This document shows, piece after piece, positions 6,088 through 17,647 of a stretch of DNA of 39,224 bases. The stretch lies in NCBI GenBank assembly GCA_964647565.1, contig CAZYIM010000025.1:2654-41877 (forward strand), in the 5' to 3' direction. The notes beneath the pieces were generated by a model. That model was not told the DNA's origin, made no database searches, and worked only from the letters and a program-made list of their open reading frames with translations. The DNA comes from an uncultured Methanosarcinales archaeon. Lineage in GTDB: Archaea; Nanobdellota; Nanobdellia; Woesearchaeales; CAZYIM01. The position numbers and the translations under genes are program-made. Positions within the stretch are counted from its first letter, which is position 1, and the number at the start of each line of letters is the position of its first letter.

Positions 6088-6131
6088 ATAATCTTTTCTT
6101 AGAAGAACTAATATAAAAAATTATAGTTTTT
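6073..6131 (-). promoter_or_regulatory. Repeated junction module (stop, TATA box, TTCTT-N2-AAGAA palindrome, ATG); second copy at 8125-8183
   Basis: 57 of 59 nt identical between the two copies by manual alignment; TTTTTTATAT ends 23 nt before the ATG. Confidence 0.75.
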
Positions 6132-8139
6132 TAATAATGACCAAAATATCCTGGACATCAACAGCGCCATCTTCTGTCAAATCATACTGTGAAGTGCCAA
6201 AAGCCCTGACAAGCAAGACAAGATCCATAATATCAACAACACCATCCCGGTTCAGATCCCCAAGCAAGGACTGGGGAGGTGGAGTATCGGAAACACTGCC
6301 TGTATTGACAAACTTGATTGCATCTGCCACTATAAAACCATTGGTGTTACTAAGTTCCACAAATCCAGAAGTGCCTTTGTCAAAGTTATACTTTCCAAGG
6401 CTATTCCATTGCCCAGTATTATCCCTCTGATCAATGGTACCGGTTGCAGCCCCACTGGAATGATGTATCTCATAACCAATTGTAGTTGCCCCTGTCTTTT
6501 GAGGGTGCCATTCAAACACCTCATACTCACCTGCCAGACCAATCGAGGGCCTATATATAGCACTCGCCCCTGTATAAGAAGTGAATGCAATGTCGTGGGT
6601 GTTTCCAACTCTCTTATACTGGATCAGTCCAGGATTGTCACACCCCTCTGTCTTTGGGTTGTTGATCTCACATACCTGATCCCATATGTTCTCACCAACA
6701 TAAGAATATCTACAACCCCAAGTCCAAGGATCAGAACATTCATTGTAATCCTGGCAGCACTGCATATGCCAATCACCCTTTAGCTCGGCCATCTGGCTTC
6801 CAGCTGATGTGAATGCTCTGGTATGGTCAATTATAATATCTGTCACAATCTTCAAAGGCTGCTTAAGTAATATGAGTCCATCTCCAAAATGTCTCGAGGA
6901 AGTACCCTCATCCTGTTCTTTTCTTCCATGAAGATCAAAACTAGAAAATTCCTGTCCATTGTTAACAGAATAATCCTGCCCACCCTCGAAGTGATAGTAA
7001 GGACCATCATAACCCTGAAGACCTTGAAGCATTGAAATGCTTATCGTACGGGCTTCACCCTGAGGATTGGTTATTGCAACACCATTGTTGAAAAACCTCA
7101 CAAAAACTCCATTTGAAAGGCGCTGATAAACACCAGTTGGATAACCAAGATCAATCTCAAACTCATCATACCATTCATTATAATAATGATCCCTTATATC
7201 TTTTTGATCAGTCAAAGAATATCCTACTTCCTCACAATCAAAATACCCATCTCCCATCAAAGTCATTGTCAATAGGTATCTCATGTCCTTGAAATCATGT
7301 TTGTCAGTAATCAGGCCATTGATCAGAACCATGCTTGGCTCCTTCCTACTATTGACAACAGAGTTATACTTCTGTATAAATCCCTGCCCCCAATACCTAG
7401 GTACCGAAGCATATTCATCAATAAAACCATTTGCAATACCTGCTCCCCAGTCCTCTAAAGTACCGGTATTTATGAGTATGGGACGGTTGCCGAGGTTATT
7501 GTTCTCAAGAGCCTGCCTCATATTAGAGAGCAGTTTATCACATCCTGCCACAAAAGTCTGTTCAATCCAATCTCCACCATGCTGGTCCAAGTCGTTCTGA
7601 CCGTCCCTATCCAGATCCACATCCTGCGATCCAAACTGGTTGCCGCTTAATGCAATCAGATCTCCTGCATAACGATGAATGCCGTCAGTTGCCACACCAT
7701 CAACATAGTTAAAATCAAATGAATCAATATAGCTCTGCGCCAGCCATTCATTGAATTTCATGTTGCCATGAGCTGGACTGGGCCTACAGTAATCCGTCGG
7801 ATCAGCATAGTAGCCATCAGGATCATACAGCTTTATATGATCCTCATTGGATGTACGAAGACGCCATTCCTCTGGACAACCACCATAGAAATCATAGATA
7901 CGCCATTCCTTTGTACCCAGTATGATTGTATTAGGATTTATGGCCTTTATCTCTTGAGGAAGTGATGATGCAGCATTATCAAAACTTATATCCACCAAAT
8001 CATAACGCGCATATAATTCCGGTGTTGCACCACCCCATTGAAAGGATGCAATCCTTGGATAAGAGGGATTGTAATCAGTTGCCTGAACATAGAACACTAA
8101 TAATACAAATAGAAAAACTAACATGACACCTCTTTTCAT
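6121..8139 (-). CDS. Secreted putative glycoside hydrolase + golvesin/Xly CBM-like + dockerin-like domain (paralog)
   Basis: YPRI, DGVATDG, NGFIDE, WYDEFEIDLGYP, IIIDH, ADAIKFV, dockerin. Confidence 0.75.
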   Translation of the reverse strand: MKRGVMLVFLFVLLVFYVQATDYNPSYPRIASFQWGGATPELYARYDLVDISFDNAASSLPQEIKAINPNTIILGTKEWRIYDFYGGCPEEWRLRTSNEDHIKLYDPDGYYADPTDYCRPSPAHGNMKFNEWLAQSYIDSFDFNYVDGVATDGIHRYAGDLIALSGNQFGSQDVDLDRDGQNDLDQHGGDWIEQTFVAGCDKLLSNMRQALENNNLGNRPILINTGTLEDWGAGIANGFIDEYASVPRYWGQGFIQKYNSVVNSRKEPSMVLINGLITDKHDFKDMRYLLTMTLMGDGYFDCEEVGYSLTDQKDIRDHYYNEWYDEFEIDLGYPTGVYQRLSNGVFVRFFNNGVAITNPQGEARTISISMLQGLQGYDGPYYHFEGGQDYSVNNGQEFSSFDLHGRKEQDEGTSSRHFGDGLILLKQPLKIVTDIIIDHTRAFTSAGSQMAELKGDWHMQCCQDYNECSDPWTWGCRYSYVGENIWDQVCEINNPKTEGCDNPGLIQYKRVGNTHDIAFTSYTGASAIYRPSIGLAGEYEVFEWHPQKTGATTIGYEIHHSSGAATGTIDQRDNTGQWNSLGKYNFDKGTSGFVELSNTNGFIVADAIKFVNTGSVSDTPPPQSLLGDLNRDGVVDIMDLVLLVRAFGTSQYDLTEDGAVDVQDILVIIKKL

Positions 8140-8183
8140 ATATCCTTTTCTTAGAAGAACTAATATAAAAAATTATAGTTTTT
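8125..8183 (-). promoter_or_regulatory. Second copy of the repeated junction/promoter module
   Basis: Near-identical to 6073-6131. Confidence 0.75.
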
Positions 8184-10137
8184 GAATGATAATAAGTAAA
8201 TCCTGGACATCAACAGTACCATCACTAGTAAGATCATACTCAGAAGTGCCAAAAGCCCTAACCAACAACACAAGATCTAATATATCCACAACTCCATCCT
8301 CATTCAGATCAGCAGCAACAAAGCCGCTACCCTCATCATCTACATACACAAACTTAACAGCATCTGCAACCACAGCACCATTGGCACCTGAAGCTTTCAG
8401 TTTTACAAACCCGGTTGTTCCTTTTTCAAAACTGAAGATACCAAGCGAATTCCATTTACCCTGAATGGCGCTCTGATCAATCAATCCTGTTTCAACACCA
8501 TTTGCATGCTTCAACTCATACTCAACATTTGATGCTTCCTGTTTATCCTTAATATTTCCATGCCACTCAAAAACCTCATAATCCCCTGCTATGCTGATGG
8601 TCGGCCTAAAAACAGCATTTCCTGAATCCTCAGTTGTATAAGCTGTCAGGTAGAGTTTGTCCTTTAGATTCATAGCGCAATGAGCAACAGCATAGTGGCT
8701 ACCACCCTCGCATGAATGTTGCCAATTTCCAGAAAACTCTGCTTTCCTTGAAGCGGGGGATGTACCGCTGTTATGATCATCTATGATTATTTCTGAAACA
8801 ACTGTTTGAGGTATCTTTACCAACACAATACCATCACCACTTTTATAATCCAATTTATTTTCTTTAAAACTATAGCCTTTCAGATCAACAAAATTAAACA
8901 ATTCTCCATTATTGAAATCAGAATCCTGACCGCCTCTAAACCTATAGTATGGCCCATCATAGCCATCAAGTTCCTTCAACTGTTCATCAGTCACAGTCAC
9001 ATCATGGCCATTAGCATTCAGGATTGCAGCACCCTGATCAAAGAACCTTGCCCATATCTCACTCTGACCAATCCTCTGCATCTCAGAGGTCGGGCATCCT
9101 ACATCAAGATCATACTCATCATAGTATTTGTTGTGCAGGTGTTCATATCTTCCACCACCATCTATCAAGAGCAGCGGTTCATACTGGAAATAGAATCCCC
9201 ACATCATTGTCTGAGTCAGGCCATATCGGATATAGGGAAAAAACTCCCATTCAGGATTCGGATTGTCTGGATGGCCCCAGCTTGCCTGATACAGGAATAA
9301 GGAAATATGTGGTTGGGCTGTTCTCTTGATGTTATGATCCATATTTCGTCGCTTCCAGTCAAAATCATGATCGGGGCCTGAATATTCCCAAATCAATCCA
9401 TTAGGTACGGTGATGTCTGCTAACCCCCTAAACCCTGCACCAGTATTTATTATCATGTATTTATCAGGTCCAATCCGATCTCTGACATTCTGCATCAAAG
9501 TGATAACTCCATTATTCCAATGTTCAGTGACCCAGGGAATATGCGTATGGTACTCATCAAAAAAATCCTCAGTTGGATGTTCATCCCAGTCACTGACTCC
9601 ATTACGATTAATGTCAATGTTCTTGGGAGTGCGCCATTTCATGTGCTCACCTGCATAGAGACCATCAGTTGCAATCCCGTCATAAAGATCCATATTCATC
9701 TCATCAAACAAGAAATCAACAAAGAATTCATTGAATTTCTTTCCATCATATAAAGGACAGACATCAGCAAAATTGCCAGCCATCTGGCCTACTGCAGGAT
9801 TTAAACCAACATACCACCCATATGTTTCACCTTTTGATGTCATCAGCCTGTGAGGCTCAGGTATTTTTTCATTCATATGTGCAGCGGCATTCCAGTCCTC
9901 AGTCCCGATTATTTTTATTGCTGGATTCAACTGTTTGATCTTCTCTAGGTTTTCGCTATTGATAAGAGGCCTTCCACTTGGCCTACCTATAACTATGTCA
10001 AACCTGGACCACCATTCAACTGCGCCGCCAGGCCACTGGAAATTACTAATCCTCGGATAATGATGGCCACATTCTTGCGCAGAAATAATAGGTGTTAAAA
10101 CCAACAGGACCAAGAACAGCAAGATACACCTCTTCAT
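8173..10137 (-). CDS. Secreted putative glycoside hydrolase + golvesin/Xly CBM-like + dockerin-like domain (paralog)
   Basis: YPRI, DGIATDG, NGLIWE, YYDEYDLDVGCP, IIIDD, ADAVKFV, dockerin. Start placed at MKRCI (10137), 22 nt after TTTTTTATAT. Confidence 0.75.
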   Translation of the reverse strand: MKRCILLFLVLLVLTPIISAQECGHHYPRISNFQWPGGAVEWWSRFDIVIGRPSGRPLINSENLEKIKQLNPAIKIIGTEDWNAAAHMNEKIPEPHRLMTSKGETYGWYVGLNPAVGQMAGNFADVCPLYDGKKFNEFFVDFLFDEMNMDLYDGIATDGLYAGEHMKWRTPKNIDINRNGVSDWDEHPTEDFFDEYHTHIPWVTEHWNNGVITLMQNVRDRIGPDKYMIINTGAGFRGLADITVPNGLIWEYSGPDHDFDWKRRNMDHNIKRTAQPHISLFLYQASWGHPDNPNPEWEFFPYIRYGLTQTMMWGFYFQYEPLLLIDGGGRYEHLHNKYYDEYDLDVGCPTSEMQRIGQSEIWARFFDQGAAILNANGHDVTVTDEQLKELDGYDGPYYRFRGGQDSDFNNGELFNFVDLKGYSFKENKLDYKSGDGIVLVKIPQTVVSEIIIDDHNSGTSPASRKAEFSGNWQHSCEGGSHYAVAHCAMNLKDKLYLTAYTTEDSGNAVFRPTISIAGDYEVFEWHGNIKDKQEASNVEYELKHANGVETGLIDQSAIQGKWNSLGIFSFEKGTTGFVKLKASGANGAVVADAVKFVYVDDEGSGFVAADLNEDGVVDILDLVLLVRAFGTSEYDLTSDGTVDVQDLLIIIQKL

Positions 10138-10169
10138 ATAAGTGATATGAATAGAGCTCATATAAAAAA

Positions 10170-13085
10170 CTATAGATTGTTGATGACCACAAGTAAATCC
10201 TTGACATCAACAGTACCATCACCAGTAAGATCATGTTCCGATGTACCAAATGCTCGGATGACAAGGATTAGATCCTGGATATCAACAACACCATCTTTGC
10301 TTACATCTGCAATTTGGTCTTTACTCTTGATCAATATTGACGCGGCCCTTACAAAATAGCCTTGTGTTAATCCTCCTAAATTTGAATCAAACCTAAAACC
10401 GAGTGTGTTGCTTCCACTATCCAGGTTTGATAAGGGGATCTCATGACAAAATTCCATTTCGGTATTATCTCCTGTCACAGAGATAGGATTCCAACTGCCG
10501 AAATTTACCTTGAAACTCCCTTCTTGATCAGAGTCCACATCAAACACCTTGAACTTGATTATTGCAGATTCAACACTAGAAATTTCAATACCCCTAACAG
10601 TGCAAGTTCTTAATGTTCCGGGAGGTTGACTTACATTCAAGGGCATAGGGGTGCATGGAATGGTCCTATCATAAGATACACCTGTTGGACAATTGGTTGA
10701 AACATCTATACAAGTTCCTATTATGCAGCAGAGTTCACCATGATCAGATGAATTGATGAAACGGCCTCCAACACAACTCTGGCCAGATGAACATGGTTGA
10801 CCATTCTTAGAGGAGCAAGTACTATCTTCACCTCCACCATCCTGGCCACAATCAGAGATAGACACACTGAGTGATCCAGCATTATCTTTAGCAAAAGAGT
10901 CTGTGATATTAAACTTGAATTTTGCGTTCTTTCCAGGCAGATTCACAGAATATATGTGGTTCGCATTATATGCGCCCCAATCGATGTTAGCCCCATCAAT
11001 TGATAGGTCAAGATAGTGAGGAACAGGATGCACGTTTTCACCCTCACCTTTATGCCAACCCGGATGTCCATGGCTTGTCAATTCAGACCATTCAGCATCA
11101 GCAATGCCATCGGGCTGTGCAGGGAACCAGTATTGATAAGTACCTGATGCAGTTATCTTATAAGTTTTAGAACTCGAATAGGTTTTAGTGGTTTGGCCCC
11201 CCCTTCCATCTACATAGACCGTCACTTGCTCGAGTTGCAAACATTCCAAATCCCCTGTATTGGTATAGAGCTGGCTATGCGCGGTATTGAAATTATTATC
11301 AATTGCCAAGATCTTATACTGCAGATATTGATTAGGTATGACGCCAGAAAATGTGCTGCCTGTCGGAGTCATCTTAATATATTTTTGTATTCCGCCCTCT
11401 TTATATAATATATACGCATATTGTGCTCCTGAAATAGTTGATGTCACTGTCAGGGTTGTACCTGAAATCTGGCTTGTGACACTGGCAATACTAGGAGCTG
11501 TAAAGTCTGTCAATGCCAGGCTATCTTGCTGGGCATACTGGGCCCAAACATTATAATATTCAAAGATGTGATTGAATCTTGAATCGATGGTATCTCCGAT
11601 GATAACAATCAGATCACGACTAATAGTGCCGACCAGATGATGGTTGACCAATCCAGCTTCTTCTATTCCAGGAAGCTTTTTAAAATTATATCCCATCAAT
11701 CGTGCTCCGACTGCGTCAAGGGCAACCGGATCAATACTGGCCAGGGCTATCTTCATATCATAGGGATCGCTGCCTGCTGCATTCTTCTCATTGGCCACTA
11801 TTCCATCCAGAACATTGAAATATTTTCTTTGTTTGGTAGATCTTACACTACCTTGGGAATCTGCATAAAGAACTATCCTATTTAGATCCAATATGCTTCT
11901 CCAAAGCACGTCATTTCCAAAGGTGACATCATAAGATCCTCGAGCATCACCTTTCTTGTTATGGGGTATCCTGACAAAACCTGCATCACTGTTATCATAG
12001 GTAGAAGCCACTGTTATACCAACAAGATTCTTTAAGGCAAGAGTCACGATATTAGTCCAATGATTTTTCATCTTAGGCACATTGATGATCACATCTGAAT
12101 CCAGGACATACTCGCTTATTGCATACCAACCCATGGCTTGACCATTAGGATTGATCCCATATGAATCTGCTGTCTTGTAATACTGATGGTTGTATAATGT
12201 CACATCATAATAGCCCATATCATAATCAGTGTAACTTGAACCTGCAAAAGCACTGTTCTGGTCAAGGTTGATCCATCGCCATTTCTTATTAGTGCCCCTA
12301 TCGTTAAGATTCACAATCCTGATTTCGATATTGGCATGTTTTGTATCTAAAGCTTCGACCATCGCAACATATTTGGTATCCAGAAGATATTTCTCACCAT
12401 TGGTAAATCCAGGGCTACCATCGCCAACCCATATCTTAGTTGCACCTGCTGTAACCGCCATGTCTATCAAAGGCCTGACAACTGACGGATGACTATATGC
12501 CGCACCACTGGCAGCAACCATGTTAGGTTTTATAAGCACTGTATCGCCTTGGCTAATCAAGTCTGATAAAGGGTCTGATTGGGTTCCCAGTGCTGTCCCA
12601 ACAACCACATCCCATATAAAATAATACACAGGATTGTCTCTTGCATCATAAGGAGGAGTTGTGCCGTAGCTGACAGAAGCATCATAGTTAAAACTCACAA
12701 TCGGATCTTCTGGTGAGAGTGGATTAAGGCATATATATGCAGGAATAGTCCTGCTGCCCAAAACTCTCAACTGTTCTTGTTGGTAGTCTGAATAAAGCCT
12801 AAAAGAGCATATTAATAATATAGGTATAAGCAATATCAAGAAAAAAGTCAATGGTTTTCCTATCATGAAGCGCCAGATGTGTTTCCTTTTTTTGTAAATG
12901 ACAGCTGGAAGCAGTCCAAGAAAAGAGCTCATCTGGAATACCGCCGCCTTCTGGCAGGGATATGTTATTCTGGTGGGTCTTGGTATGACCCTAAACAAGA
13001 ACCAAGCCAGGCTCAAAATTGTAAATACAAGATAGCTATGCTTGAACTTTCCAAGAAAACCTAGTTTATTATGTTTCTTGCACAT
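10170..13085 (-). CDS. DUF362 domain protein with N-terminal membrane segments, Ig-like/lectin-like beta domains and C-terminal dockerin-like domain
   Basis: DUF362 motifs VLIKPNMV, SHPSVV, VGDGS, INVPKMKNH...TLALKNLVG, LDGI, DPVALDAVGARLMG; two N-terminal hydrophobic segments; terminal DVSKDGVVDIQDL...DLTGDGTVDVKDL. Confidence 0.8.
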   Translation of the reverse strand: MCKKHNKLGFLGKFKHSYLVFTILSLAWFLFRVIPRPTRITYPCQKAAVFQMSSFLGLLPAVIYKKRKHIWRFMIGKPLTFFLILLIPILLICSFRLYSDYQQEQLRVLGSRTIPAYICLNPLSPEDPIVSFNYDASVSYGTTPPYDARDNPVYYFIWDVVVGTALGTQSDPLSDLISQGDTVLIKPNMVAASGAAYSHPSVVRPLIDMAVTAGATKIWVGDGSPGFTNGEKYLLDTKYVAMVEALDTKHANIEIRIVNLNDRGTNKKWRWINLDQNSAFAGSSYTDYDMGYYDVTLYNHQYYKTADSYGINPNGQAMGWYAISEYVLDSDVIINVPKMKNHWTNIVTLALKNLVGITVASTYDNSDAGFVRIPHNKKGDARGSYDVTFGNDVLWRSILDLNRIVLYADSQGSVRSTKQRKYFNVLDGIVANEKNAAGSDPYDMKIALASIDPVALDAVGARLMGYNFKKLPGIEEAGLVNHHLVGTISRDLIVIIGDTIDSRFNHIFEYYNVWAQYAQQDSLALTDFTAPSIASVTSQISGTTLTVTSTISGAQYAYILYKEGGIQKYIKMTPTGSTFSGVIPNQYLQYKILAIDNNFNTAHSQLYTNTGDLECLQLEQVTVYVDGRGGQTTKTYSSSKTYKITASGTYQYWFPAQPDGIADAEWSELTSHGHPGWHKGEGENVHPVPHYLDLSIDGANIDWGAYNANHIYSVNLPGKNAKFKFNITDSFAKDNAGSLSVSISDCGQDGGGEDSTCSSKNGQPCSSGQSCVGGRFINSSDHGELCCIIGTCIDVSTNCPTGVSYDRTIPCTPMPLNVSQPPGTLRTCTVRGIEISSVESAIIKFKVFDVDSDQEGSFKVNFGSWNPISVTGDNTEMEFCHEIPLSNLDSGSNTLGFRFDSNLGGLTQGYFVRAASILIKSKDQIADVSKDGVVDIQDLILVIRAFGTSEHDLTGDGTVDVKDLLVVINNL

Positions 13086-13233: not shown

Positions 13234-13584
13234 ATGTCATATGATTATAAACAGGTCATCCTTGTTCGACAGGATCTGAAACTGCAGAAAGGCAAGATGT
13301 CAGCGCAGGTAGCCCATGCCAGTGTTGAAGCTGTGATGCGCAGTGATAAGGACAAGGTCAAAGAGTGGCGCAAGGAGGGCATGAAGAAGGTAGTGCTAAA
13401 GGTTGCAGATCTTAAGGAACTTCATAAGTTTAACCAGATGGCAAAAGATGCAGGGTTGACAACTGCCACCATCACAGACGCAGGCCATACAGCAGTGGCT
13501 CCTGGAACTATGACTTCCTGTGCAATTGGACCTGATAAAGAAGATGATATTGATGCGGTCACTGGCGACCTGCAGATGATTTAG
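13234..13584 (+). CDS. pth2: Peptidyl-tRNA hydrolase, Pth2 type
   Basis: KQVILVRQDLKLQKGKMSAQVAHA, KKVVLK, DAGHT, IGP motifs; GGTGA SD upstream. Confidence 0.95.
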   Translation: MSYDYKQVILVRQDLKLQKGKMSAQVAHASVEAVMRSDKDKVKEWRKEGMKKVVLKVADLKELHKFNQMAKDAGLTTATITDAGHTAVAPGTMTSCAIGPDKEDDIDAVTGDLQMI

Positions 13585-14788: not shown

Positions 14789-17647
14789 ATGGAACCAGAA
14801 AACAAATTAATCGAAGAAAGACTCAGAAAACTCAAGGAAATAAGAGAGATGGGAGTCAACCCGTATCCTTATTCATATAAACAAACACATCATGCTAAAG
14901 AAATCCTAGACAAGTTCGACAAAAAACTCAAAAAAGAGCAGACCACCAAGACCAAGGTCTCTGTTGCAGGCAGGATCATAACCCTTAGACGGATGGGAAG
15001 AGCTACTTTCATGCATCTCCAGGATGTGACAGGCAAGATCCAGCTATACTTAAGGGAAGATGATATCGGCAAAAAGAATTACAAATTCTTGAAAAAACTA
15101 GATATTGGCGATCATATCGGGGCAAAAGGCACTGTATTCAAGACAAAGACGGGCGAGACGTCTGTATATGTAAAGAAATGCAGTTTGTTATCCAAAACAT
15201 TAAGACCTTTGCCAGAGAAGTTCCACGGTCTTGCAGACCAGGAACTGAAGTATAGGATGAGGTATTTGGACCTTATTATAAACCAGGATGTCAAAGACAG
15301 GTTTATCATGCGGACCAAGGTCATCCAATATGTAAGGGAATTCCTAGACAAGCTCAATTTTATTGAAGTTGAAACCCCTGTCTTGCAGGTCATCTATGGA
15401 GGCACCAATGCAAAGCCTTTCAAGACTCACATCAATGCCTATAACATGCCTATGTACCTCAGGGTAGCACCAGAACTTTATCTGAAAAGACTGGTGGTTG
15501 GCGGCTTTGAAAGAGTGTATGAGATAGCAAGAAATTTTAGGAATGAGGGTGTTGACCAGACTCATAATCCTGAGTTCACAATGATCGAATGGTATGAAGC
15601 CTATGCCGACTACGATGTGATGATGGACCGAACAGAGGATATGTATAAGTTCATAGCCAAGAAACTCTTTGGCAAGGCAGAGATCGTAGTAGGCAAGAAA
15701 AAGATCAACCTGGCCAAGAAATGGCCGCGGATGCCCCTGGTTAAAGCCATCAAGAAATATGTTCATATCGATGTCATGAAAATGAGTGAGAAAGAACTTG
15801 CCCAATTCTGTGAAAAGAATGGTGTTGAAGTAAGAGATGGAACCAGCAAGGGCCAACTGATATTTGGAATATTTGACAAATTAGTATGTGATCATCTGAT
15901 CGATCCCATCTGGATAATAGACTATCCAAAAGAGGTCTCACCTCTTTCAAAGGTGCATAGGAAGGACGATTCCTTTGTAGAAAGATTCGAATGCTACATA
16001 GGCGGAAAAGAGATCGGTGATGGATGGTCAGAACTGATTGACCCGATAGGGCAAAGGCAAAGGTTTGAGCATGAGCAGGCAGAGATGCGGGCAGGCCAAG
16101 AGGATGCCCATCCAATGGATGAAGATTTCATCACCTGCCTCGAATATGGAATGCCTCCACTTGGAGGGATCGGCATAGGTATTGATCGATTAGTCATGCT
16201 TTTTACCAACCACTGGTCTATAAGGGATATCATGTTCTTCCCCATCATGAAACCTGAAGGCGGAGTGCAGACAAAAAATGATGCCAAACCAAAAGAATGT
16301 CTTTTCCTACTGGATGAAACTGTCAAGAAAAAATTTCCTGGCCTGAAAATAGGTGTTGCAGTAATCAAGGATGTCACAATAAAAAAAGAAGATAAAGAGC
16401 TTGAAAAAGAGAAAAAAAAGATAGTCAGCGAGATACAAAAGAAAGCAAAGGAACTGCTGAAAAGCTCAAAAAGCCTTAAGGCATATGAGGATCTATATAG
16501 AAAAACCGGTGTTGACTTCACCAAGAGGAAACCTTCTCCAACAGCTCTGCTAAAAAGGCTATCAGAAGGTAAGGATCTCTACAAGATCAACACCTTGGTT
16601 GATGTTGTCAATCTCTGTGTCATGAAGAACCAGATGTCAATGGGCGTCTTTAACTTCGACAAATTTAAACTGCCTGTTGTGCTGAGATTTGCCAAGAAAG
16701 GCGAGAAATTCCAGCCACTAGGAGAAAAGGAGTTCAAGGATCTTGATGAAGGTGAGATCATCTATGCAGACCAGGATATGGTTACTACCAGGGATTTAAA
16801 TTACCGGGATTGTGATAAATCCAAGATCACTGAAAAAGTCAAGAACATCATGTTCTTTGTAGACGGCACAGAAGCCAATACAGAAGAAGAGCTAAAAGAG
16901 ATCTTTGAAGATGCGATTGAACAGATAACAAGGTTTGTGGGCGGCACAGTTGAAAAGGTCATGTTCTCTTTTAAGAAAGCAGAAACTCCTAAGAAAAAAT
17001 CAGTCTCAAAGATGAAAACACATCCGATCTTCTGGGCTGATTTCTATGTTGGAGAGTTCGATGCCAAGGTTGTTAAGATTGAAGGCGACGAAGTAGTGCT
17101 TGACAAGACCTGTTTCTACGGAGAATCCGGCGGCCAGGCAGGAGACATCGGAACCCTGAACAAGATCAAAGTCATCAATACTCTCAACAATAAAAAAGAG
17201 ATAATCCATGTTTTAGCAAAGAAGCCAAGCTTCAAGACTGGTGACTCAGTGCATGGCAAGATAGACTGGGAAAAAAGGATCAACACCATGAGACTGCATT
17301 CAGCCAGCCATATAACAGAACATTTCCTGTTCAAGGAATTCGGAGAGCTGAAACGAATCGGCTCTGCTGTCAACGATGTCAAAGACAGGAGTGATTTTCT
17401 AAGTGATGAGAGTCTTGGCGGCGACAAGCTGAAAAAAGTTGAGGATGCCAGCAACAAATTCATAGCAGGCAAAAAGGATATCAAGATAATTGTTGATGAT
17501 GCAGGCTACAGGCTCTGGAAGTGTGAAGATATCGAAGACGGTTGTGGCGGAACTCACGTCAATAACACCAAAGAGATAGGCAAGATCAAGTTAAAGCGAG
17601 TCAACCTCGGCAAAGGCAAAGAACGGATTGAGACATATCTGTGTTGA
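14789..17647 (+). CDS. lysS: Class II lysyl-tRNA synthetase fused to a B3/4 domain and an AlaX-like editing domain
   Basis: LysRS-II motifs FIEVETP, YLRVAPELYLKRL, RNFRNEG...HNPEFT, YGMPPLGGIGIGIDRL; then B3/4 motifs PSPTALLKR, INTLVD, GEIIYAD; then AlaX motifs FYGESGGQ, HSASH, CGGTH. Confidence 0.92.
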   Translation: MEPENKLIEERLRKLKEIREMGVNPYPYSYKQTHHAKEILDKFDKKLKKEQTTKTKVSVAGRIITLRRMGRATFMHLQDVTGKIQLYLREDDIGKKNYKFLKKLDIGDHIGAKGTVFKTKTGETSVYVKKCSLLSKTLRPLPEKFHGLADQELKYRMRYLDLIINQDVKDRFIMRTKVIQYVREFLDKLNFIEVETPVLQVIYGGTNAKPFKTHINAYNMPMYLRVAPELYLKRLVVGGFERVYEIARNFRNEGVDQTHNPEFTMIEWYEAYADYDVMMDRTEDMYKFIAKKLFGKAEIVVGKKKINLAKKWPRMPLVKAIKKYVHIDVMKMSEKELAQFCEKNGVEVRDGTSKGQLIFGIFDKLVCDHLIDPIWIIDYPKEVSPLSKVHRKDDSFVERFECYIGGKEIGDGWSELIDPIGQRQRFEHEQAEMRAGQEDAHPMDEDFITCLEYGMPPLGGIGIGIDRLVMLFTNHWSIRDIMFFPIMKPEGGVQTKNDAKPKECLFLLDETVKKKFPGLKIGVAVIKDVTIKKEDKELEKEKKKIVSEIQKKAKELLKSSKSLKAYEDLYRKTGVDFTKRKPSPTALLKRLSEGKDLYKINTLVDVVNLCVMKNQMSMGVFNFDKFKLPVVLRFAKKGEKFQPLGEKEFKDLDEGEIIYADQDMVTTRDLNYRDCDKSKITEKVKNIMFFVDGTEANTEEELKEIFEDAIEQITRFVGGTVEKVMFSFKKAETPKKKSVSKMKTHPIFWADFYVGEFDAKVVKIEGDEVVLDKTCFYGESGGQAGDIGTLNKIKVINTLNNKKEIIHVLAKKPSFKTGDSVHGKIDWEKRINTMRLHSASHITEHFLFKEFGELKRIGSAVNDVKDRSDFLSDESLGGDKLKKVEDASNKFIAGKKDIKIIVDDAGYRLWKCEDIEDGCGGTHVNNTKEIGKIKLKRVNLGKGKERIETYLC

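Follow-up and report, generated by a model that had tools for sequence, protein, structure and literature searches.

A class II lysyl-tRNA synthetase fused to predicted B3/4 and AlaX-M deacylase modules in an uncultured archaeon

Why should a lysyl-tRNA synthetase (LysRS) carry two different aminoacyl-tRNA editing domains? The question is raised by a gene found in the stretch of DNA that we have analyzed, 39,224 nucleotides of contig CAZYIM010000025.1 (positions 2,654 to 41,877 of the forward strand; assembly GCA_964647565.1) from an uncultured marine archaeon of the Woesearchaeales, called the window from here on. A single frame codes there for a class II LysRS followed, in the same chain, by a B3/4 domain resembling canavanyl-tRNA-Arg deacylase (CtdA) and by a module of the AlaX-M type. 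Two reviews describe LysRS as an enzyme that mischarges its tRNA, relies on pre-transfer editing only and has no editing domain (PMC4173786, PMC7373986). The pneumococcal class II enzyme makes Ala-, Thr- and Ser-tRNA-Lys (PMC4173786), and LysRS is described as editing homocysteine, homoserine and ornithine before transfer only. In bacteria, ProXp-ST1/2 clear in trans the Ser- and Thr-tRNAs coming from LysRS among other synthetases (PMC7373986). Given such mischarging without post-transfer editing by class II LysRS itself, the simplest reading would be that the appended modules supply the missing post-transfer sieve. The interpretation that we favor, with moderate confidence, is that of a housekeeping class II LysRS whose two C-terminal deacylase modules would carry out post-transfer editing of mischarged tRNA-Lys. 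The case is stronger for the B3/4 domain than for AlaX.

The frame is continuous, with no stop inside. The earlier note on this DNA had read in the letters a 952-aa ORF with a LysRS at about residues 1-490, a B3/4 domain at about 505-725 and an AlaX unit from residue 742, and these boundaries agree with the structural model within a few residues (Table 1). The synthetase part belongs to the LysS family. Pfam detects the OB anticodon-binding domain (tRNA_anti-codon, PF01336, aa 57-134, E 1.3e-16) and the class II catalytic core (tRNA-synt_2, PF00152, aa 150-487, E 6.1e-88), and the NCBIfam lysine--tRNA ligase model PRK00484 matches aa 5-490 along all of its positions (1-488/488) with 685 bits, over a curated cut-off of 468; TIGR00499 gives 618.9 bits over 427.6. 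Besides, the motifs FRNE (250-253) and GIGIDR (462-467) fall in invariant columns of an alignment with 29 relatives. This core would be expected to lysylate tRNA-Lys. The AlphaFold2 model of the full chain, built on 29 aligned relatives, has a mean predicted local distance difference test score (pLDDT) of 88.2 and drops below 50 in residues 492-502 and 730-746 only, depicting three well-folded modules joined by two short flexible linkers. The predicted template modelling score (pTM) of 0.54 gives no reliable mutual arrangement of the three.

The Pfam B3_4 match (aa 568-698, E 1.8e-22) reaches 80.2 bits against a cut-off of 29.3. By sequence the best solved relative is CtdA (9f7e, E 5.4e-6), followed by the beta subunit of phenylalanyl-tRNA synthetase (PheRS-beta) of Pyrococcus horikoshii (2cxi, E 1.8e-5 across 42 residues) and by the other CtdA structure, 9mkl. 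Modelled alone the domain had a pLDDT of 93.3, and the Foldseek comparison of this model with 9f7e gave an E of 1.4e-15 and TM scores of 0.76/0.81 over 235 columns; the TMq values for PheRS-beta chains were 0.45-0.58. By score, fold and the presence of Asn105 and Gly116 the domain belongs to the CtdA-like free-standing branch of family PF03483. When CtdA residue numbers are transferred through one pairwise HMMER alignment, the retained positions are Ser80, Leu84, Asn105 (N608), Gly116 (G619), Asn170 and Arg172, and the changed ones E118 (F621), C166 (T667), W171 (Y672), Q173 (D674) and I189 (F), part of them within an NYRD motif at aa 671-674 (nt 16799-16810). The CtdA mutants N105A, G116H/W and Q173G are inactive (PMC12449066).

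We have counted these residues in the C-terminal domains of 40 class II and 22 class I LysRS fusions and in nine domains fused to arginyl-tRNA synthetase (ArgRS); the counts leave out the N-terminal fusions P0357, P0381 and P0049, the fragments P0277 and P0334 that fall outside the LysRS clade described below, and P0125. Asparagine at CtdA position 105 is present in 40/40, 21/22 and 8/9 of the three sets respectively, and glycine at 116 in 36/40, 17/22 and 9/9. Likewise the serine of position 80 is kept in 40/40 class II and 21/22 class I fusions and the arginine of position 172 in 39/40 and 21/22. The pocket is another matter. At position 118 the class II set has phenylalanine in 35 and tyrosine in 3 of its 40 members and the class I set phenylalanine in 15 and tyrosine in 7 of 22, whereas 8 of the 9 ArgRS domains have glutamate. 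Tyrosine at 171 is found in 39/40 class II and 18/22 class I domains (ArgRS: tryptophan in 6/9), and aspartate at 173 in 40/40 and 21/22 (ArgRS: glutamine in 5 and glutamate in 3 of 9). In other words, the pocket residues follow the synthetase partner. An identity with CtdA proper was considered and rejected, both from the pocket (F621, T667, Y672, D674) and from the location of the domain inside a 952-aa chain instead of a free protein of about 230 aa. With a pocket unlike the one that receives canavanine in CtdA, the domain should not have canavanine as its substrate; it is predicted to work as a CtdA-type deacylase of other specificity. As a guess, the substrate would be an amino acid resembling lysine, either a near-cognate basic one or another; a basic side chain is suggested by the invariant aspartate at the position of CtdA Gln173.

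These same residues bear on two other explanations. In one of them hydrolysis has been lost and the appended domains are handles, i.e. an extra binding surface for the capture of tRNA-Lys comparable to the EMAPII/tRNA_bind domains of other synthetases. A true tRNA_bind domain (PF01588) does occupy the appended position in the relatives P0040, P0241 and P0277, and binding of the tRNA acceptor end is common to the B3/4 and AlaX folds. However, throughout the clade the residues needed for catalysis are conserved, and both zinc motifs of the AlaX module are intact, which would be unexpected for a mere handle, and we regard this explanation as improbable. In the other the enzyme would control the supply of Lys-tRNA-Lys, hydrolyzing the correctly charged product or lysyl esters outside translation. 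The acidic Asp674, invariant in the clade, would suit a basic side chain including that of lysine itself, and LysRS fusions with non-translational partners exist, for example those feeding lipid aminoacylation; the LysX model NF002821 matches here the LysRS core only. Against it, cognate hydrolysis on the only LysRS would be a futile cycle, Pfam finds no membrane or transferase domain in the chain, and the relatives CtdA and AlaX do not accept cognate products (PMC12449066). Control of Lys-tRNA-Lys supply appears to us slightly less credible still than the loss of catalysis.

Phylogeny of the B3/4 domain provides a further argument for editing of tRNA-Lys. A quick tree was made with 168 rows, namely 167 stretches in which 170 or more query residues are covered, taken from 184 proteins with a match, plus P0125 added by hand. 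It contained a LysRS clade of 76 rows with a Shimodaira-Hasegawa-like approximate likelihood ratio test (SH-aLRT) support of 99, made up of 40 class II, 22 class I, 10 free-sized or fragment and 4 other domains, and without any ArgRS or tyrosyl-tRNA synthetase (TyrRS) domain among its 76 rows. Class I and class II LysRS were intermixed inside, 19 and 16 label changes being needed. A more careful tree combined a random subsample with ten loci-derived domains, 80 rows in all, and left out the long branches P0125 and P0378; it recovered a LysRS clade of 32 rows (16 class II, 14 class I and 2 free) with an ultrafast bootstrap (UFBoot) / SH-aLRT support of 89/85. Here the query sits in a strongly supported mixed subclade (98/96) with five others, three of class II and two of class I, and another such subclade unites 10 class II with 8 class I domains (99/94). 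The domains fused to methionyl-tRNA synthetase (MetRS) formed a clade of their own (100/99), those at the C-terminus of PheRS-beta another one (100/98) within a group of free-standing proteins, and the ArgRS, TyrRS and N-terminally fused LysRS domains were found beyond a 100/95 branch. As the main new result of this analysis, class I and class II LysRS share in these trees a single intermixed lineage of C-terminal B3/4 domains, apart from the ArgRS, TyrRS, MetRS and PheRS-beta lineages. The two unrelated LysRS folds have only lysine and tRNA-Lys in common, and one B3/4 lineage on both amounts to a 'Rosetta stone' argument that opens the hypothesis to a direct test with recombinant protein. It is thus because the catalytic residues are conserved, the pocket is partner-specific and one lineage is present on two unrelated LysRS folds that tRNA-Lys is the probable target of this domain. 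Among the matches listed, the LysRS core of the query is closest to the LysRS-HD proteins P0013, P0022 and P0025 (59-64% core identity) and its B3/4 domain to P0003 (66%) and P0123 (60%), so core and domain seem to have separate histories.

The third part of the chain is of the AlaX-M type by full-length alignment and zinc ligands. Pfam detects the C-terminal part of its alanyl-tRNA synthetase (AlaRS) model (tRNA-synt_2c, aa 736-828, E 6.1e-14) and tRNA_SAD (aa 911-948, E 1.8e-8). P. horikoshii AlaX-M (2e1b) aligns from chain residue 5, at T744 of the query, to residue 215 of 216 with an E of 3.7e-34, including the N-terminal barrel, the glycine-rich motif and both zinc motifs, HxxxH (H837-H841, nt 17297-17311) and CxxxH (C919-H923, nt 17543-17557). 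In the alignment, free-standing AlaX-M proteins begin close to the position of Met742 (nt 17012-17014). This methionine and the two motifs had been pointed out in the earlier note and all of them are present in the translation. The NCBIfam AlaXM equivalog NF040865 gave 153.3 and 163.5 bits, below its cut-off of 300, so that membership in the curated equivalog is not reached, although the module is predicted to work like an AlaX-M. A search with residues 740-952 among shorter proteins passed 174 matches; within the best 120 of them most were free-standing proteins of about 210-235 aa with 40-53% identity, the top one was a class I LysRS-AlaX fragment, P0387 (56%), and one was a PheRS-beta piece with AlaX, P0413 (426 aa). 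The AlaX of the class I LysRS-fused P0124 is 55% identical to the query; among the matches listed, the fused modules nearest to that of the query are thus both on class I LysRS.

The AlaX tree started from 238 matching proteins. Coverage of 150 or more query residues reduced them to 160, and random removal of 15 of the 27 AlaRS rows to 145. The nine class II LysRS-fused domains need four label changes in this tree and the starred branches force at least three, which means that LysRS acquired AlaX-M on no fewer than three independent occasions. The module of the query is grouped with that of P0124, a class I LysRS fusion (SH-aLRT 92, unstarred). As to how the junction arose, P0003, the nearest LysRS-B3/4 protein among the matches listed, ends in 'KVFYSFEEK', and the query continues from 'KVMFSFKK' for about 11 residues up to Met742, which would fit the capture of a downstream AlaX-M gene through loss of a stop codon. 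In the few relatives checked, the LysRS and AlaX-M genes were not side by side (about 6.6 kb apart in G022, on different contigs in G010 and G020). Another synthetase has received such a module too. In a relative of the same order (G051, contig C29, L035:721-3126, + strand) an 802-aa PheRS-beta carries, between B1 and B3/4, an AlaX-M-like module 43% identical to query residues 726-951, and this subunit would then hold two different editing folds.

The most serious competitor of the editing hypothesis holds that the two domains are ordinary trans-editing factors, AlaX-M for Ser/Gly-tRNA-Ala and B3/4 for some other tRNA, tethered to an abundant and essential synthetase for co-expression, stability or co-localisation only, without acting on tRNA-Lys. 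In its favor, free-standing AlaX-M proteins share 50-56% identity with the module, which still has a Met742 of its own, and PheRS-beta too has an inserted AlaX-M (L035, P0413). LysRS in these lineages collects varied domains (HD, DUF2000, tRNA_bind), B3/4 is present on six kinds of synthetase, and the long low-confidence linkers give a beads-on-a-string model. Nevertheless, a passive tether does not predict a partner-specific B3/4 lineage common to two unrelated LysRS folds, other synthetases bear other B3/4 lineages with other pockets, and a free AlaX-M is kept in the genome beside the fused copy. We consider mere tethering rather unlikely for the protein as a whole. The earlier note had left both possibilities standing, a hub that proofreads tRNA-Lys or one that carries trans factors; the B3/4 lineage now favors tRNA-Lys, while the AlaX fusion alone, being found in PheRS-beta as well, does not show it. 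For AlaX-M the editing case is weaker, as this is an ordinary AlaX-M found also in PheRS-beta, yet it has been recruited to LysRS several times with the free copy kept.

A further alternative is a chimera or a sequencing artefact joining neighbouring genes. The public protein P0001, also of 952 aa, differs by one residue (I747S) and is located on a contig of 13,676 nt, compared with 41,877 nt for the contig of the window; therefore a second assembly gives the same continuous frame. Four marine or seawater metagenome runs of two studies contain 65-89% of the sampled words, and their Logan contigs match the sequence without any other letter or indel; these runs are weak support because they may be the source of the assembly. 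Independent support comes from P0125 (971 aa), in which the three parts follow in the same order, with 35% identity in the appended half, and LysRS+AlaX and LysRS+B3/4 fusions are numerous. Of the two junctions, whose spanning by reads the earlier note proposed to check, that from LysRS to B3/4 is bridged by the Logan pieces 16157-16353, 16066-16279 and 16325-16534, and that from B3/4 to AlaX (nt ~16976-17026) has no bridging piece among those listed. In favor of an artefact could be invoked this gap, the low Logan depth (about 2-6) and the presence in linker 2 of the old AlaX start methionine. The pieces stop at 16965/16969 and resume at 17029/17046, adjoining the I747S polymorphism. This strain polymorphism, seen between window and P0001 at 17027-17029, lies just past linker 2, by the breaks of the four runs. 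The fusion is real and not an assembly artefact, an origin to which we give hardly any credit.

To see how widespread such architectures are, we have run several searches. Long LysRS-like proteins (523-1666 aa) numbered 7912 at E <= 0.001. Within the best 120 of these, 27 carry B3_4, 55 an HD domain (the source names being mostly of candidate phyla radiation (CPR) bacteria) and 7 AlaX-type domains, others have DUF2000 or tRNA_bind, and B3_4 and AlaX together are found in the protein of the window alone. Some proteins combine other pairs, B3/4 with HD (P0005, P0020, P0027, P0059, P0269) or AlaX with DUF2000 (P0024, P0033), and P0013, P0022, P0056 and P0070 are examples of LysRS-HD; one HD family hydrolyzes Ap4A, a LysRS product. 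A search with the appended half (residues 496-952) passed 489 proteins, the best 120 of which add P0125 as second three-part protein, class I LysRS with B3_4 (P0126, P0131) or AlaX (P0124), and ArgRS with B3_4. The B3/4 domain was also compared exhaustively, by HMMER, with 1.84 billion representatives, which yielded 2007 matches at E <= 0.001, 734 at <= 1e-10 and 52 at <= 1e-30. In the best 150 of the 2007, 97 do not exceed 260 aa and 53 are longer; by Pfam these 53 divide into class II LysRS (13), class I LysRS (14), Anticodon_2+B3_4 pieces resembling class I LysRS ends (4), ArgRS (6), TyrRS (1), B3_4+DUF2000 (1), B3_4+tRNA_bind (1) and B3_4 only (13). The three-part form is rare but not unique, with two examples, the query and P0125, among the matches listed, and the two-part forms of LysRS with B3/4, AlaX, HD, DUF2000 or tRNA_bind are common in DPANN archaea and CPR bacteria. 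The earlier note did not recall the three-part architecture from elsewhere; rarity is borne out, although the second example and the frequency of two-part forms take away its isolation.

In the phylum of the window, 44 of 401 genomes (its own and the unpublished G350 included) have a B3/4 match at E <= 1e-8; G350 enters into nothing else reported here. Ten long frames from this sample comprise seven MetRS-B3/4-tRNA_bind, two PheRS-beta with an extra C-terminal B3/4 and one B3/4-class I LysRS, and none of the ten is a LysRS-B3/4-AlaX triple. The MetRS proteins (911-1008 aa, from seven same-order genomes) have the CtdA-like B3/4 between the anticodon-binding domain and a C-terminal tRNA_bind, by Pfam in L037, L042 and L043 and by phmmer only in L038-L041. 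The two PheRS-beta subunits with an additional C-terminal CtdA-like B3/4 are L045:1162-3483 (+) in G207 (774 aa) and L046:1255-3540 (+) in G141 (762 aa). N-terminal B3/4 domains were found in the ArgRS proteins P0133, P0145, P0262 (two copies), P0309, P0360, P0361 and P0370 and in the TyrRS P0384. The ArgRS-fused domains, with Glu118 in 8/9, look like canavanine editing built into ArgRS. We have also compared 60 genomes of the same order, one per family. Class II LysRS is present in 36 of the 60, so the use of class I by most archaea, mentioned in the earlier note, does not make a class II enzyme odd here.

In the open literature (supplements and most subscription journals lying outside the search, and 'B3/4' being unsearchable as a phrase) we have found no description of a LysRS with appended B3/4 or AlaX. 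The CtdA papers (PMC12449066, bioRxiv 10.1101/2024.11.30.626143, PMC10018355) contain 0 occurrences of LysRS, lysyl, fused or fusion. Nor is there such a description in the portions seen of PMC5424206 and PMC7373986 or any LysRS content in PMC13149037 (Nat Chem 2026, on deacylase-guided discovery), and the portion seen of PMC11580382 (AARS Online) names AlaX-type domains as free proteins and AlaRS/ThrRS parts only (ThrRS, threonyl-tRNA synthetase). As far as searched, the wider pattern, with editing modules fused to class I and class II LysRS as well as to further synthetases, is undescribed.

The metagenome-assembled genome (MAG) that holds the window, as its contig C25, has 2.68 Mb in 86 contigs and is 86.9% complete with 1.85% contamination. 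It gives a single class II LysRS-level match and 0 matches to class I LysRS (PF01921), so the fusion protein is the sole LysRS of the organism as far as a MAG of this completeness shows. PheRS-beta and AlaRS are of archaeal type, which together with a Pth2 gene upstream of the fusion and the genome sizes of the relatives (0.6-2.1 Mb) points to an archaeon. The AlaRS (848-aa frame) retains its HxxxH/CxxxH editing domain, which settles in the affirmative a question raised in the earlier note. A free AlaX-M, 38% identical to the fused one, is encoded on contig C2, an AlaX-like protein with a DHHA1 domain and a YbaK/ProX-type protein of 163 aa on contig C5, and ThrRS bears tRNA_SAD. The PheRS-beta has a normal archaeal layout with a B3/4-sized region, whose weak B3_4 match (18 bits versus 29.3) neither shows nor excludes loss. 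With a free AlaX-M and an intact AlaRS editing domain, the fused AlaX is an extra paralogue and not a relocated sole copy. Compensation by the fusion for editing lost elsewhere was considered and rejected from this inventory of AlaRS motifs, free AlaX-M, AlaX-like protein with DHHA1, YbaK-like protein and ThrRS tRNA_SAD. As separate observations on this genome, ARAGORN calls an 84-nt 'tRNA-Stop (tta)' at C63:5341-5423 (+) (locus L015 1501-1584), probably a miscalled tRNA that is unusual in having an intron or in some other way. There are two different ThrRS-like sequences, a complete one at C48:328-2400 (-) with a 691-aa frame and another at C79:3789-4730 (+) that ends with its 4.7-kb contig, and the MAG exceeds in size all 60 same-order relatives (0.6-2.1 Mb); some admixture or a real duplication may be involved.

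Several results weigh against the editing of tRNA-Lys by the appended modules. The AlaX-M module stays within the identity range quoted above to ordinary free-standing proteins, and its presence in PheRS-beta (L035 and P0413) makes AlaX-M fusion not specific to LysRS. The CtdA-like B3/4 is also found on MetRS, ArgRS, TyrRS and PheRS-beta, so synthetase fusion is a general habit of these lineages. The support of the LysRS B3/4 clade in the careful tree is moderate (89/85), and in the quick tree the B3/4 domain of P0125 falls outside that clade, among free-standing proteins and on a long branch (1.54); the second triple may have arisen separately, or its domain may be misplaced. The pocket comparison depends on the single pairwise alignment by which CtdA numbering was transferred, and the geometry required for a shuttle of the CCA end is unsupported by the model with its pTM of 0.54. 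Among the 60 same-order relatives, LysRS+B3/4 is found in G020 only (729 aa) and the triple in none. Besides, no tRNA-Lys gene was found in the MAG, in which ARAGORN detects 8 tRNAs (18 with introns allowed) and Rfam RF00005 10.

Taking both sides into account, post-transfer editing is still the explanation that we prefer, and it could proceed as follows. After charging of tRNA-Lys, the flexible CCA end, or a tRNA just released nearby, would be sampled by the appended domains. The B3/4 domain would hydrolyze tRNA-Lys bearing a wrong amino acid and spare Lys-tRNA-Lys. The AlaX-M module, presumably captured later than B3/4 by read-through into a formerly separate gene, might remove Ser or Gly esters, from tRNA-Lys in cis, from tRNA-Ala in trans, or from both. 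A stronger version, which we put forward only tentatively and consider doubtful, is that in many uncultured archaea and bacteria both classes of LysRS have a dedicated B3/4 editing domain, which would have passed repeatedly from one class to the other because of some feature of the lysine/tRNA-Lys system that it recognizes. A chemically different site, AlaX-M, would have been added here to give one synthetic site and two sieves acting on tRNA-Lys. No synthetase is known to have two different hydrolytic editing domains for one tRNA, although no search was aimed at this.

The coordinates of the gene and its parts are collected in Table 1. By inspection of the sequence no Shine-Dalgarno is visible upstream of the ATG at 14789, and a leaderless archaeal mRNA would fit. 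A gene for the peptidyl-tRNA hydrolase Pth2 (13234-13584, +) lies 1.2 kb upstream on the same strand, with an unassigned 382-aa ORF on the opposite strand between the two. Farther upstream (6121-13085, -) three large neighbouring proteins of 672, 662 and 971 aa each end in a dockerin type I domain, an unusual find for an archaeal MAG. Golvesin_C is present in two of them, a GHL15 glycosyl-hydrolase-like domain in one and DUF362 in one.

Table 1. Positions in the window of the LysRS fusion gene, its modules and linkers, and a possible promoter element.
Feature	Position (nt)	Strand	Remarks
Whole gene, LysRS-II / B3/4 / AlaX-M	14789..17647	+	ATG start, 952 aa + stop codon
Possible TATA-like box TTTATAAAAA	14758..14767	+	22-31 nt before ATG; sequence reading alone
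Class II LysRS module, aa 1-491	14789..16261	+	Pfam, NCBIfam
Linker 1, aa 492-502	16262..16294	+	pLDDT <50, full-length model
CtdA-like B3/4 aminoacyl-tRNA deacylase domain (predicted), aa 503-729	16295..16975	+	Pfam, CtdA match, model
Linker 2, aa 730-746, contains Met742	16976..17026	+	pLDDT <50
AlaX-M type editing module (predicted), aa 747-952	17027..17644	+	2e1b alignment, Pfam, NCBIfam

If the B3/4 domain does edit tRNA-Lys, a missing piece of translational quality control would have been found, and it would point to an unnamed lysine-like antimetabolite that small, scavenging cells must exclude. More generally, DPANN and CPR organisms seem to build synthetases from a kit, with B3/4, AlaX-M, HD, DUF2000 and tRNA_bind distributed over LysRS, MetRS, ArgRS, TyrRS and PheRS-beta. 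The parts seen of the CtdA papers, PMC7373986 and PMC11580382 make no mention of this kit-like assembly.

Among known systems, CtdA (9f7e, 9mkl; PMC10018355, PMC12449066) is like the fused B3/4 in the fold of the whole domain and in Asn105 and Gly116, which are kept. However, CtdA is free-standing and belongs to the arginine system, whereas the fused domain sits on LysRS with the canavanine pocket residues replaced. The B3/4 of PheRS-beta shares the family PF03483 and the fold, and both are presumed to act in cis on the product of their own synthetase. It hydrolyzes Tyr-tRNA-Phe. The likeness is weaker in this case, and the PheRS-beta domain is internal to the subunit, unlike the fused LysRS domain, a C-terminal add-on of the CtdA-like branch. 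The third module is nearest to AlaX-M and the AlaRS editing domain. P. horikoshii PH0108 (2e1b) aligns with it over the full length and with both zinc motifs, but PH0108 is free-standing and the query module follows LysRS-B3/4 and scores below the AlaXM equivalog cut-off. AlaX-M hydrolyzes Ser/Gly-tRNA-Ala with recognition of G3:U70. The same problem, mischarged tRNA-Lys without post-transfer editing by LysRS, is met in trans by ProXp-ST1/ST2 and MurM, reported to clear Ser/Thr- or Ala-tRNA-Lys (PMC7373986, PMC4173786). These are YbaK/INS-like proteins and a Fem transferase, of unrelated folds, free-standing, bacterial and experimentally shown. Finally, LysX (MprF-LysRS) and the LysRS-HD, LysRS-DUF2000 and LysRS-tRNA_bind proteins of CPR and DPANN share the class II LysRS core as a platform; they differ in their partner domains and presumed roles, and B3/4 together with AlaX is found, among the matches listed, in the query and P0125 only.

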